A DNA stretch of 64,000 nt from Minisyncoccota bacterium (GCA_028694995.1 JAQVJU010000002.1:67503-131502), one strand, 5' to 3'. Shown: positions 13,011 through 20,186, counted from the stretch's first letter. Translations and numbers: made by a program. Notes: generated by a model not told the origin, from the sequence alone.

Positions 13011-13390
13011 ATTTAATTGATATAATTTTTCATAAAAACTCTAAAATAGGTCACTTTTAGCGAAGCTCTAAGTTTTACTTAATTTAGTGATAAATCTTTT
13101 ACAACTTTTGGCAGATTTCTTTCTGTGGCGATTTTTGTTTATCTATGTAGTATTCGTCTACTTTTTTATCTGTCATGTTATTTATACTCAATAAACAATA
13201 GTGTTTTTTAATAACTCAGCATATATATGAATCAATAAATTAAATTTTGTGTCTAAAATCACCTAACAAGCATCTGCAGGGAGAGATCAACAAAAACATT
13301 TTCCATCTAGCGGTACCTTTTGGTTAAAATCCGAATTTTTTTTCGGCGGATTTCGAGAGCGTGCCAATATCATTGGCGCGCCGCTTCAAA

Positions 13391-16297
13391 TTAAGAAAAT
13401 ATCTTCACAAAATCATTTGTCCAATATCTTCTGTATTCTTCCTTAATTTCTCTGCCCGGCTGTTGCTCGTTGAAATAATACAAATCAACCCTTTCAAGCT
13501 TCTTACTTCTCAGTTTATCTAAATCATCCACAAAATCAATGAATCCGTCAATTTTGTCAGCAGAATTGGTCGTATATTCAACGCCGTGCGGATCAATAAA
13601 CTTGATATAATATTGATTGTCTTTTTTAAGCCAAAAGATGAAATCCGGATAAAAATTATCATATTGGCTTTTATCCGAATTAAAATAAGGAATTCCAACT
13701 CTATCTATTGTTTCATCAATTTTTGAAAAGTACCACCAATCAAAATCTTTCAGCAGATTATCGTCTTGCGTTAAGTATTCTTTCAGAGTGTGCAAAAATT
13801 CTATTTCGCTTTGCTTTTTGATAATATGCTGAAAATGTTCCGTATCTTGCTTAAACAAAATAGGCGCATAGTAATGCTCCTCTAAAATTTCAAAATCCAA
13901 ATAATTTCTCAGAATATCCAAATTTTTGCTATCGGCTACATCTTTTATCAATTCTTTATATTTACTTCTGTCAATTTTCCCTTCGTCAAACATTTTATCT
14001 ATCTCTTTTTCGGTCAATCTTGGTTTGATGATTTTTAAAATATCTTTTTCTAATTTTTCTACCTCGTTTTTATCAATGTTTGTTTTAACTTTTTTGTAAT
14101 GCAAAATTTCGTCGTCCAAAATTTTTATCTCGCTTAATTTTTTAACATTTTCATTGAAATAGTTATCTGAAATAAACAATATATTCTCAATTGATTTTTT
14201 TCTTCTTCTTTCTCCAGTTTTGAAATTGTCCCTATTACTTACTTTGTTGAAAGTCCTTAATTTTATCCCTTGTTTTAACAAAAGCACTTTTGGTCCATTT
14301 TTCTGAACGAGCTGTGAAAGTTCGTTATACTCATTCGTGCCAATCCAAAACGGCTTATTATTCACTCCACCGTCTTCAAAAAATGGTATGAAAATTGGCA
14401 ATTCTTTTTCGTTTATTCCCTCATTTTTCTTTATTCCTTCTATTTTAATCCAATCCGGGTTAACTTGTTTTCCCAATCCTTCTAGAATATTCTTTACCAC
14501 CTCTTTATTGGTAGCGAAAATAAACAAACTCTCTAAAACATTATTTTCTTTTTTTATTTTTTCAACTTCGGAATTTGAAAAAAGCGAATTCTCTAAATAG
14601 TCAAATCTTTTCCTTTGGTTGATAGTCGGTTCAATTCTTACGCCACGCCCGATTGACTGCAATACAAATTTTTTGGCGTCGTCGCTTACACCGATATTGA
14701 TAAAGTTAATCACATTGGGGCGGTTCGTATCCCAACCCTCGGTAAATATTCGGCTTCCGAGCAGAATATTTATGTCATTTCTTTTGTTTATATCGTCAAA
14801 AAAACTTTCTCCGATAACTCGCCCGAATTCATACCCCTCTAAAACATTGCTTTCCCATTTGATAATATCGCTTGCGACAATAAGCATAAAATATTTACTC
14901 GCTCCGACCAGCTTAAAGGCAAGCTCCCTAGAATTATCCCTGAATTTTACAATTTCTATATTCCCTTGATTATCGGCATTAAAAACGGCCTTAAAAAAAT
15001 TCGCTTTTTTCAAATTCCTGATTTCAGAAATTAAATTTTGATCTATATCTCCAAGCCCGAATAAATAATCCTTGTTGTTTTTCAACTTTACGACTAAATT
15101 GTTTTTTGCCACTTCAAAATTAAATTTTCCACGCGCAATTTCAGCCAAAAGTTTATAGAAAATTTTTAAATCAGCTTCTTCTGTATTTACGCTATTGGCC
15201 AAAGTGATTAAAAGAGGGGCATGATATAAATTTTTACTTATCGTCTGCATTTTATGAAAATGCTCTTTAGCCAAAGCAAAAATAATTAAAGTTTGAGCGA
15301 TAATATCCTTTTTTTCATTTGTTGAAAAATCATCATCCATTCCCTTTTTAAAATTCTTGAAGTCAGAATTTGCTATGTATAATTTTTTTCCGTAGCCTTC
15401 TTTCAAAAAAGTATCCAATTTATAATCAAAAATGGTTGTCGCAATATCCAAATCATCCGTAAAGGTAGCGGAAAAATTAAATAAAAATCCGTTTTTGGTG
15501 AGAGCCATAAAATATTGCTGTCTTTTTGAAGTTTCTTTTTCTCCTTTATGCGCCTCGTCCAAAATCAAATACCAATTGCCGCTGTTATAAATACTTTCGT
15601 AATTTATTCTTGAGCCGTTTAATTTTTTTGCGATTGTTTCTTTGTCAGCGATATTATCCGCCCGATAATAAAAAACATTGATTTCGCTTTTATTAAAAAT
15701 ATCCTGCTGATTTTTTATTTTTTCCCACTCCTTCAAATTTCTAAGATTTATTGTTATTTCCGCGCCCTTATTGAATTTGTTTATATGCTCTTTAATTTGG
15801 GATAGAATTTCGTCTTTTGGAGCCAAAATCAAAATATCCTTATGAGGAATTAAATTTTTATTCATTAAATCAGCCAAAATCGCTAAAAGTTTTACCATTA
15901 CTAAAGTTTTACCGCTTCCGGTCGCCATCCAAAAAGCGGCGCGGTTTATAAAACTTTGAAATGAAATGCGAGTGCCGGCTGGAAAATAATTTGCCAAAAA
16001 TTTAAAATTTTCGTTTTCTTCCTTAATATCAAGCTGATCATTTAATTCTTGTGTCAAGCCGAAATCACGATACAACTGTAAAAATTCTTGTTTGCTTCTG
16101 TCTAATGCCAAGCCGTTATTTTGCTTAAAATCTTTGTAAAGCAAATACAAAACGGCGGTTATGTTTTCTAACGCCTTTTTTTGGTATGGAAAGAGTTCCC
16201 AGTCTAAACCGAATTTACTCAAATCTCGGTAAATCCATTCAGGCGGAATATCCAAACTTTTCCATTTATTTTCAATTATTTTTTGTAAGATTATCAT
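13391..16297 (-). CDS. res: Type III restriction enzyme Res subunit (SF2 helicase + nuclease)
   Basis: Walker A 'ATGSGKTLVM', DEAH box 'LILDEAHKGE', 968 aa, immediately downstream (3-nt gap) of a DNA methyltransferase. Confidence 0.75.
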   Translation of the reverse strand: MIILQKIIENKWKSLDIPPEWIYRDLSKFGLDWELFPYQKKALENITAVLYLLYKDFKQNNGLALDRSKQEFLQLYRDFGLTQELNDQLDIKEENENFKFLANYFPAGTRISFQSFINRAAFWMATGSGKTLVMVKLLAILADLMNKNLIPHKDILILAPKDEILSQIKEHINKFNKGAEITINLRNLKEWEKIKNQQDIFNKSEINVFYYRADNIADKETIAKKLNGSRINYESIYNSGNWYLILDEAHKGEKETSKRQQYFMALTKNGFLFNFSATFTDDLDIATTIFDYKLDTFLKEGYGKKLYIANSDFKNFKKGMDDDFSTNEKKDIIAQTLIIFALAKEHFHKMQTISKNLYHAPLLITLANSVNTEEADLKIFYKLLAEIARGKFNFEVAKNNLVVKLKNNKDYLFGLGDIDQNLISEIRNLKKANFFKAVFNADNQGNIEIVKFRDNSRELAFKLVGASKYFMLIVASDIIKWESNVLEGYEFGRVIGESFFDDINKRNDINILLGSRIFTEGWDTNRPNVINFINIGVSDDAKKFVLQSIGRGVRIEPTINQRKRFDYLENSLFSNSEVEKIKKENNVLESLFIFATNKEVVKNILEGLGKQVNPDWIKIEGIKKNEGINEKELPIFIPFFEDGGVNNKPFWIGTNEYNELSQLVQKNGPKVLLLKQGIKLRTFNKVSNRDNFKTGERRRKKSIENILFISDNYFNENVKKLSEIKILDDEILHYKKVKTNIDKNEVEKLEKDILKIIKPRLTEKEIDKMFDEGKIDRSKYKELIKDVADSKNLDILRNYLDFEILEEHYYAPILFKQDTEHFQHIIKKQSEIEFLHTLKEYLTQDDNLLKDFDWWYFSKIDETIDRVGIPYFNSDKSQYDNFYPDFIFWLKKDNQYYIKFIDPHGVEYTTNSADKIDGFIDFVDDLDKLRSKKLERVDLYYFNEQQPGREIKEEYRRYWTNDFVKIFS

Positions 16298-16300
16298 AAA

Positions 16301-19348: not shown

Positions 19349-20053
19349 TGTGATATGATAATATAGATATTAGGATATTGATATTATTCTATCGTTCGTG
19401 AGTTATCTATAATGCTATAATACCAAAAATTTTAATTTTTAGCAACGATAATAAAGGGAGTTCCTTTGCGTTGCCCGCGCACGAGAAGGGTGAGGCAACA
19501 GCAACATCATCTATGGCGGCGCATTTTGCTTTGCAAAATACGCTCTCCAAGTCCGCCGAAAAAAGGTCGGCCCAAGCTAGGGCGAGACGTAAGGGGGGTG
19601 TGGAGGGAATTCCGCCTCGCCTGAGCCGAAGCGAAGCTCCGCCGCCCTGCTCGTTCAGAGCAGACCGCTAAAGAAATCTGAAAGATTATCGATGATCTCG
19701 GTTTGAAGGGGTGGCGAGATTATTTACTTTCCGTTTCAAATTATCAATATCTTTTGCAAAATCCGTTATATTACGGATTGATAAGATATAACGGCAATTT
19801 TACGAAGAAAAGCAATAATCGGTTCAAACTCGCCGCCTGATTCATAAATACCGTAAAACAAGCCAAAATTATCGCTTTGTAAGAAAATTCCGAATAGAGT
19901 CGGGATTTTCTAAAAAAAATTGGTTCGAACTTCCGTTTGAGCGGGCAGAAATTATTTTTGGATTTCAAATTTCCCTTCAAAATCCTCGCTGAAGCCGAGC
20001 CCCGCCTTTGGCGGGGCGAGGCAACAATCGCCCAAAATTCGAATTTTGAAAAT

Positions 20054-20143
20054 TGGCGGAGAGGGTGGGATTCGAACCCACGGTGCCCTTGCGGACACAG
20101 CTGCTTTCCAAGCAACCGCACTAAACCACTATGCGACCTCTCC
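20054..20143 (-). tRNA. tRNA-Ser (anticodon GGA), long variable arm, CCA encoded
   Basis: minus strand GGAGAGG-TC-GCA..TGC-GTTGC-TTGGAAA-GCAGC-variable arm(TGTGTCCGCAAGGGCACC)-GTGGG-TTCGAAT-CCCAC-CCTCTCC-G-CCA. Confidence 0.8.
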
Positions 20144-20186
20144 ATTTCTTATCCTTGTATTTTAAAGGATAAGAAATTTATTCTGC

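Follow-up and report, generated by a model that had tools for sequence, protein, structure and literature searches.

Type III restriction-modification (R-M) systems such as EcoP15I and EcoP1I are encoded by a single operon in which mod precedes res. Their Mod subunit is a beta-class DNA methyltransferase in which the DPPF motif comes before the FxGxG motif, and their Res subunit is a superfamily 2 (SF2) ATPase of the DEAH type with a C-terminal PD-(D/E)xK-like domain. An operon with these features, including a putative nuclease-like domain at the C-terminus of Res, was found in a stretch of 64,000 nucleotides from a Minisyncoccota bacterium (GCA_028694995.1, JAQVJU010000002.1:67503-131502), which is called the window in this report. 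It lies between the 3' end of tRNA-Ser(GGA) and an MGMT-like gene, and we propose that this segment, 13019-20055, is probably an integrative island that has decayed, with the Type III R-M operon as its cargo. Islands of this type are found repeatedly in genomes of the candidate phyla radiation (CPR; Patescibacteria). Several properties set the operon apart from the known Type III systems. The window Mod is about 300 amino acids (aa) longer and has an N-terminal extension of about 460 aa, the sequence of the window Res could not be matched to EcoP15I Res or to the REase_III profiles of PADLOC, and the nuclease motif of its clade is PD...D-P-H, not ...(D/E)-x-K. In addition, a gene for an Xre-type helix-turn-helix (HTH) protein precedes mod, and the operon has no phase-variation repeats, since neither homopolymers nor simple repeats were found in it.

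Units that combine R-M genes with an integrase and are integrated in tRNA genes were surveyed by Furuta, Abe & Kobayashi 2010 (PMC2853133). Their survey also describes compact R-M units between long inverted repeats, and loci at which different restriction systems replace each other as alleles. The example in Figure 3c of that paper has a tyrosine-type phage integrase, whereas the island of the window has a large serine recombinase; the host here is a CPR bacterium, and the ends of the repeats are formed by a conserved structured element, which includes a covarying hairpin. Elements with large serine recombinases, such as the integrases of phages and integrative and conjugative elements and the TnpX/TndX-type transposons, are similar to the window island in that its intact relatives have the Resolvase, Recombinase and Zn_ribbon_recom domains, the location is site-specific, and long direct repeats are not needed at the ends. 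They differ from it in three respects: the recombinase open reading frame (ORF) here runs antisense into the tRNA 3' end; in the related loci L026 and L034 (numbers of this form denote loci from other genomes and contigs) the tRNA-proximal end is duplicated in inverted orientation, giving repeats of 154-155 nt; and the window keeps only a fragment without the catalytic domain.

Horizontally acquired islands with R-M systems have been reported in Patescibacteria, with most transfers taking place between Patescibacteria (PMC12455944). The example in that paper is a Type I system predicted by IslandViewer, whereas the system in the window is Type III. An architecture of tRNA, recombinase and inverted repeats is not described there, and the words 'tRNA', 'integrase' and 'recombinase' are absent from it. 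R-M islands of the window's kind have been described already, and the end element of the inverted repeats and the PD...DxH variant are possible minor novelties. The locus is a clean, well-bounded case of a CPR bacterium that acquires an R-M system by site-specific integration at a tRNA and then domesticates it, with the mobility gene decaying and the cargo being strongly retained. Ultra-small CPR bacteria mostly do not have CRISPR.

In the proposed history, such an island would consist of a tRNA 3' end, the gene of a large serine recombinase pointing into that tRNA, and a cargo cassette between long inverted repeats. A recombinase-bearing element would have inserted at the CCA end of tRNA-Ser(GGA) in the window's lineage, or the insertion may have taken place in a close relative and then spread via recombination in the conserved flanks. 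Sequence comparison shows that later deletions removed the catalytic N-terminus of the recombinase, an internal recombinase block and the outer part of one inverted repeat. These deletions immobilised the island, while the cargo was kept under strong purifying selection. The features of the locus are as follows.

13019-20055 (7,037 bp, no strand): the whole variable segment, i.e., the proposed island, between tRNA-Ser(GGA) and the MGMT-like gene.
20054-20143, minus strand: tRNA-Ser(GGA) with encoded CCA (ARAGORN, Rfam), the proposed integration target.
19697-20089 (about 390 nt), plus strand: large serine recombinase pseudogene, whose 3' end runs into the tRNA as in the intact copies.
19540-19676, no strand: HTH-side copy of the long terminal inverted repeat, hairpin-rich, with a G+C content (GC) of 0.62.
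19508-19568, minus strand: HTH-side structured end element (covariance model R1, 74.7 bits).
19349-19507, minus strand: promoter/operator region (consensus scan; putative function).
19139-19348, minus strand: gene for the Xre-type HTH protein, 69 aa (Pfam HTH_3, E 1.6e-17).
16301-19132, minus strand: mod, 943 aa, beta-class N6/N4 DNA methyltransferase (Pfam N6_N4_Mtase, residues 479-719).
13391-16297, minus strand: res, 968 aa, ATPase of SF2 (DEAH) whose C-terminal domain is nuclease-like, with the motif PD...DxH (Pfam ResIII/DEAD).
13334-13392, plus strand: res-side remnant of the inverted repeat, with hairpin GCCAAT-ATC-ATTGGC (R1, 70.5 bits).
13019-13337 (319 nt, no strand): AT-rich non-coding stretch (GC 0.28), restricted to the window's lineage.
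12756-13010, minus strand: MGMT-like gene (DNA_binding_1, Pfam), which borders the slot on the left and is conserved in the same order in L001 and L006.

The two closest relatives of the window are L001, a Candidatus Paceibacterota metagenome-assembled genome (MAG; JAQVJR010000002.1), and L006, a metagenome contig. Both flanks of the island are colinear with them at about 89-94% nucleotide identity. L001 1-11512 aligns with window 31580-20056 and L001 12305-14921 with window 13018-10415, and the breakpoints in L006 are identical to those in L001. In both relatives the slot holds 792 bp of unrelated sequence instead of the 7,037 bp, so the island is not conserved synteny. The right breakpoint falls inside the CCA of the tRNA, which reads ...CCGCCA in the window and ...CCGCAT in L001, and the left one lies 8 nt 5' of the MGMT-like start codon. 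The CCA is genome-encoded in the window tRNA-Ser (20054-20056) and not in the L001 copy (...GCAT; 11510-11514), and it appears to have been supplied by the island. In more distant relatives HtpX and tRNA-Ser are kept and the genes beyond them differ, and therefore the 3' side of tRNA-Ser is a synteny breakpoint.

The 792-bp segment of L001 and L006 encodes a membrane-anchored Mrr_cat protein of 201 aa (Pfam E 2.5e-30; PADLOC Type IV-like). In L001, the G+C content at third codon positions (GC3) of this gene is 0.19, like that of host genes, and by composition this occupant of the slot looks native. In the window, neither the L001 Mrr gene nor its 792-bp segment has left a recognizable trace. 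The slot acts as a defence hotspot with mutually exclusive occupants, either Type III R-M or an Mrr-type methyl-directed nuclease, and it provides a natural test case for the conflict between a methylase and methyl-directed restriction.

The first-pass annotation of this DNA, which had proposed a horizontally acquired R-M island at tRNA-Ser, described the block as visibly more GC-rich than its surroundings. This description did not hold for the bulk values, since the operon has a GC of 0.318 against 0.310 in the window as a whole, and 29% of windows of its size reach the same or a higher value. It did hold for the non-coding edges, with GC of 0.46 at 13311-13390 and 0.455 at 19440-20050 compared with 0.31 for the window; the runs and palindromes quoted at that time were located at 15937, 15968, 13375 and 13364. 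While bulk GC is typical, the GC3, codon usage and tetranucleotide signature do deviate. The GC3 is 0.327 for res and 0.306 for mod, against 0.203 ± 0.052 for the other genes and 0.18 for ten housekeeping genes. The codon-usage divergence of the block is about twice that of the other long genes. Its tetranucleotide distance is 0.33 compared with 0.16 ± 0.045, and all eight of the eight most deviant 6-kb windows overlap it. The block is foreign in these three measures, though not in bulk GC. By part, GC is 0.39 in the recombinase remnant, 0.62 in the HTH-side repeat and 0.32 in the cargo.

Homologues of mod and res number in the thousands. The named ones are mostly from Patescibacteria, with some from DPANN archaea and a few from other bacteria. 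The mod-res pairing is conserved in every homologous locus examined, and the pair is present at 78-88% nucleotide identity in unrelated contexts of other CPR genomes. In a Colwellbacteria genome (L024, L029) it lies among housekeeping genes, and the 88% nucleotide homology is exactly limited to window 19123-13391. At L025 (2303-9906) it is located beside the SMODS and SAVED genes of a cyclic-oligonucleotide-based antiphage signalling system (CBASS) and type IV secretion genes, and at L026 it occurs together with a second methylase system; L033, L034, L035, L041 and L042 provide further contexts. The cassette has a GC of about 0.30-0.32 and a GC3 of about 0.29-0.34 across hosts whose housekeeping GC3 is 0.18 (the window), 0.38, 0.42 and 0.48. 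This constant composition across differing hosts is strong evidence for recent horizontal movement. Carriage by phages or plasmids was considered and rejected: on viral contigs only distant Res relatives were found (32-44% identity), and on plasmids only short methylase-motif matches. At L042 3342-17865, mod-res is accompanied by Shedu-like SduA_C, PDDEXK_5, DUF2779 and two serine recombinases next to tRNA-Ser(TGA), so that here, as at L025, the pair is part of a larger cluster of defence and mobility genes.

It had also been stated that no integrase survives. A serine recombinase fragment does persist at 19697-20089. When the L034 recombinase was compared with the whole window by tblastn, its residues 413-514 matched 19796-20089 with 37% identity (E 8e-9) and its residues 208-239 matched 19697-19792 with 50% identity (E 0.008). 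The two matches share a frame, abut each other and contain three in-frame stops; residues 1-207 (the catalytic domain) and 240-412 (the zinc-ribbon/coiled-coil block) are missing. A blastn comparison aligned L034 4985-5088, which is the 3' end of the recombinase gene, with window 19958-19856 at 76% identity (E 1e-12). The Pfam Recombinase match to the pseudogene is weak (E 0.008, below the gathering score). The pseudogene is also colinear with the recombinases of L015 and L026.

Intact homologues were found at the same position elsewhere. In L015 and L003, which are relatives of the window locus, they lie directly 3' of tRNA-Ser(GGA), downstream of HtpX. In L034 the intact recombinase is 3' of tRNA-Asn, and in L026 a 554-aa ORF, located between tRNA-Ile and the HTH gene, has the domains Resolvase, Recombinase and Zn_ribbon_recom; place and orientation are the same in all four loci. 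In L042, a split recombinase gene adjoins mod-res. The 3' end of the window tRNA-Ser faces the operon, as the first-pass annotation had it, and its suggestion of an old or decayed insertion is supported by the tRNA-abutting remnant together with these intact homologues. The horizontal acquisition of the island was supported by the atypical composition, the presence/absence pattern, the cassettes in unrelated contexts and the recombinase remnant.

The first-pass annotation had suggested a search for a degenerate direct repeat of the tRNA-Ser 3' end near 13.0-13.4 kb, and none was present in the whole window at up to 25% mismatches. The degenerate search did not find an inverted repeat of the tRNA 3' end either. 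The attL and attR sites of serine recombinases have only a short core in common, and no long direct repeats are made during integration. Therefore, the missing tRNA-derived repeat is not evidence against integration.

The intact recombinase genes at L026 8027-9691 (minus strand) and L034 about 4990-6360 (minus strand) overlap the tRNA 3' end and are not called in the public gene tables, so that islands of recombinase and tRNA may be under-annotated in CPR genomes. The L026 island is inserted at a tRNA-Ile directly after the 16S rRNA gene (L026 5984-8172), i.e., inside or at the edge of the rRNA operon.

The identification of the cargo as Type III R-M was supported by the match of Mod to the MTase_III profile, the order of mod and res, and the similarity of the Res model to EcoP15I Res. 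Mod matched the PADLOC profile MTase_III PDLC03638 with an E of 2e-191 and 636 bits. Its DPPF and FxGxG motifs, noted earlier, are IYIDPPF at about residue 483 and FDFFVGSGTT at about residue 694, that is, motif IV comes before motif I. Matches among PDB sequences included 6k0w_B ('Adenine specific DNA methyltransferase (Mod)') and EcoP15I Mod, 4zcf_A. As a family member, Mod would be expected to recognize a short asymmetric site and to methylate only one of its strands. Residues of about 534-641 and 715-862 of Mod are highly diverged among cassettes (L026, L034, L035) whose identity is about 79% elsewhere, and several database homologues of Mod have 72-86% identity over just 39-40% of the protein. 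The diverged segments suggest swapping of target-recognition regions and differing specificities.

For Res, the Pfam matches to residues 35-283 were ResIII (5.7e-16) and DEAD (2.2e-11). The Walker A and DEAH motifs recognized before are present as ATGSGKT and LDEAHK, and GSGKT, DEAH, SAT and QSIGRGVR are invariant in an alignment of 29 Res sequences, with all SF2 motifs intact. In NCBIfam the one match, to a dnd restriction-enzyme domain, was weak. The AlphaFold2 model of Res has a mean predicted local distance difference test (pLDDT) score of 82.8 and a predicted template modelling (pTM) score of only 0.46. Foldseek placed EcoP15I Res, 4zcf_C (E 3.3e-9, 810 aligned columns), at the top of the PDB matches to this model, with generic helicases of SF2 and HsdR ranking lower. 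The putative nuclease motif, P884-D885...D902-P-H904, is on consecutive beta-strands of the model. We considered His904 as a sign of a decaying nuclease and rejected this, since the residue is fixed across a large clade under a ratio of nonsynonymous to synonymous divergence (dN/dS) of about 0.05. In the Mod-Res complex, by analogy with the family, the DEAH ATPase would serve communication between unmethylated sites and the C-terminal nuclease would cut foreign DNA. Some Res homologues (P0133 and P0134, 1124-1127 aa) have a fused Peptidase_S24 (LexA-like) domain, and in L025 a separate LexA-like gene lies divergently upstream of mod.

The dN/dS is 0.05-0.09 for mod and 0.04-0.06 for res, giving a range of 0.04-0.09 for the two genes over five comparisons. 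With such low values the operon looks functional from its sequence, mod and res alike, and the mobility gene is dead.

The operon is bracketed by an inverted repeat, 13338-13362 and 19540-19564, in which 23 of 25 nt match. The end element on the HTH side (19508-19568) consists of TTCGGCGG...GCGT, the hairpin ATTTTGC-AAA-GCAAAAT and GCGCCGCC, in this order. On the res side, the inner structured end element alone is kept and the outer stretch of about 115 nt is gone. The HTH-side repeat 19540-19676 has homologous sequence at each end of the contigs L031 and L032, which carry the same cassette with 93% identity over window 19676-13338; the L031 homology stops at 13338. It is also homologous to L034 6833-7038, a segment that overlaps the inner end of a 248-nt repeat (nhmmer, E 5e-7).

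The ends of the L031 and L032 contigs are perfect inverted repeats of 141 nt (a 'k141' contig) and 123 nt (a JGI contig), respectively. These lengths probably correspond to the largest k-mer of the assembler, and repeats of exactly k-mer length would be expected because assembly breaks at an inverted repeat that is at least k long. For L031 and L032 the repeat length is put at 141 nt or more. That such repeats are real follows from the long contigs. L026 has a perfect 154-nt pair, 8167-8320 and 18628-18781, around a cargo block of 10.6 kb. L034 has a perfect 248-nt pair, 6665-6912 and 15569-15816, around HTH-mod-res-AAA_13, and a second pair of 155 nt, 4864-5018 and 6524-6678, around the recombinase. 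One repeat in each of L026 and L034 includes the last tRNA bases and the 3' coding end of the recombinase. Perfect or near-perfect inverted repeats were also found at the ends of the L027 contig; the overall range is 141-248 nt, and short-read contigs break there.

The repeat sequences differ between elements, and all six cassette ends of the window, L031 and L034 share one architecture, namely TTCGGC...CGT, a perfect hairpin of 6-7 bp, and (G/A)CGCCGC. Four unrelated hairpins occur among the six ends: ATTTTGC/GCAAAAT, GCCAAT/ATTGGC, ATCCCGA/TCGGGAT and GCCTCGT/ACGAGGC. In a MAFFT alignment of the ends, 94.6% of the cells pair, and both sides change in 6 of 10 pairs. The covariation score is 0.58 compared with 0.31 ± 0.06 for shuffled alignments, none of which reached 0.58 (0/500), and slid controls pair at 23-59%. 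A genome-wide repeat resembling repetitive extragenic palindromic (REP) sequences was rejected, since a scan of 351 kb with R1 gave no matches other than the six cassette ends. A known RNA behind the folding z-scores of -6.0 and -3.7 in 19440-20053 was likewise rejected, as there was no Rfam match and the hairpin-rich inverted repeat explains the scores; Rfam searches at the gathering score and at E ≤ 1 gave no known RNA family in either spacer. A consensus scan gave no intrinsic terminators at the operon ends, and the end element is not a canonical terminator.

The end element may serve as a substrate for recombination, or it may be no more than a conserved hairpin. The core of the inverted repeat is absent from IMG/VR. 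We think it improbable that the repeats mark a new system of cassettes that move or invert, with the structured ends as substrates for the serine recombinase or an unknown enzyme. If that were true, defence cargo would be swapped or flipped inside tRNA-anchored islands, and the window would hold a disabled copy.

Several points weigh against the locus being a Type III R-M island that arrived with its own recombinase. Res gave no matches to the PADLOC Type III REase profiles even at an E of 10, and none to PDB sequences by phmmer. Among the 108 Res homologues in which the nuclease motif was compared (from family members P0121-P0240), the expected catalytic Lys is His in 43, with His fixed in the window's clade, and Lys in 65. 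There is no att-like repeat at the left end of the island, and the island reading does not account for the 319 nt at 13019-13337. An empty slot, in which tRNA-Ser is directly followed by the MGMT-like gene, was not found among 18 flank-related loci and the contigs with the exact MGMT-like allele, so that only composition and the recombinase remnant give the event a direction, favouring insertion in the window over loss or replacement in L001. The taxonomic labels of short MAG contigs are unreliable, for example 'Shapirobacteria' for L032. Finally, the remnant lies outside the repeat-bounded cassette, and the cassette and the recombinase could therefore have arrived separately. In such a two-step origin, a recombinase element at tRNA-Ser decayed first, and HTH-mod-res then arrived alone as a compact repeat-bounded unit, by transposition or structured-end recombination, in or beside the remnant. 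This would account for the position of the remnant (19697-20089) relative to the repeat-bounded unit (13334-19676), and it fits the L034 cargo, which has its own 248-nt repeat pair apart from the recombinase, and the L031 and L032 contigs, which are exactly the repeat-bounded cassette. The higher GC of the remnant and the repeat than of the cargo suggests a mosaic, and R-M units with long inverted repeats have been described as transposon-like (PMC2853133). However, ORF and Pfam analysis found no transposase ORF in the cassette, and no flanking target-site duplication was seen in the window or L034. The order of tRNA, recombinase and HTH-mod-res is also repeated in L026, L034 and L042, as if they were travelling together, and among the repeats, which vary by element, that of L026 includes the recombinase's own 3' end. 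On balance, we consider two separate arrivals unlikely.

It is conceivable, though we doubt it, that no recombinase ever integrated the island in this lineage. The island would then have decayed in a related strain and reached the window's lineage when DNA was taken up and recombined through the homologous flanks (tRNA/HtpX and MGMT), displacing an Mrr-type gene. The breakpoints match the ends of the flanking homology, and the synonymous divergence (dS) of the cassette from L031, 0.34-0.37, is similar to that of host genes from L001, 0.18-0.39. Cases are documented in which R-M systems replace each other as alleles of one locus (PMC2853133). Moreover, an adenine methylase may not tolerate an Mrr-type nuclease in the same cell, and alleles that exclude each other would then be favoured. 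Such an import nevertheless only shifts the original integration to a relative, because the tRNA-abutting remnant still needs an integration somewhere, and no donor strain was identified. The reverse history, in which the R-M operon is ancestral here and the lineage of L001 and L006 lost it and gained the Mrr-type gene, would agree with the lack of an empty site and with distant relatives that all differ after tRNA-Ser, so that the polarity is not directly observed. It is very improbable in view of the R-M block being a compositional outlier while the Mrr gene is host-like, its attachment to a recombinase remnant, and the near-identical cassettes in unrelated genomes. The reading that we prefer is the decayed integrative island described above.

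Within this island, ORF analysis confirmed the tight minus-strand operon of the HTH gene, mod and res with spacers of 6 and 3 nt. The HTH protein had been called controller-like. A small HTH gene is indeed upstream of mod; as a name for its function, controller is a plausible label only, since the protein matched PADLOC Control_protein at 1.2e-10 and HTH_VI and capH score as well or better. The HTH gene accompanies the cassette in L031, L026 and L034 and is absent in L024, L025, L033 and L035. The putative promoter upstream of it, TTGCTA-17-TATTAT with an extended -10, is at 19445-19417, and between it and the HTH start lies an imperfect palindrome rich in AT. At a GC of 31%, palindromes of this kind are frequent. 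The region is conserved in L031 and partly in L034. By analogy with related regulators, the HTH protein probably autoregulates the operon from this promoter and palindrome region.

On the left side of the island, the neighbouring genes are the MGMT-like gene and a histidine phosphatase gene, and on the right side those for a small membrane protein, HtpX, LemA and GroEL. The contigs coding for the exact MGMT-like protein are all 99.8-100% identical to the window, and those reaching past the spacer carry res. Among the fetched loci, the AT-rich stretch 13019-13337 matches only the same-strain contigs L019 and L020; it has no Rfam match and no informative match in the rest of the window. The promoter of the MGMT-like gene is presumably supplied by this stretch.

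A few observations concern other parts of the window. A second small swap was seen among small ORFs of unknown function, where window 10111-10415 and L001 14921-15444 contain 304 and 523 bp of unrelated sequence, respectively. An ORF of 330 aa at 62596-63588 (minus strand) has no Pfam match and the top GC3 of the window (0.355), and is possibly another foreign gene. A SAM-I riboswitch (76.8 bits) is located at 1064-1175 (minus strand), 5' of the S-adenosylmethionine synthetase gene at 43-996 (minus strand), which is an ordinary layout.

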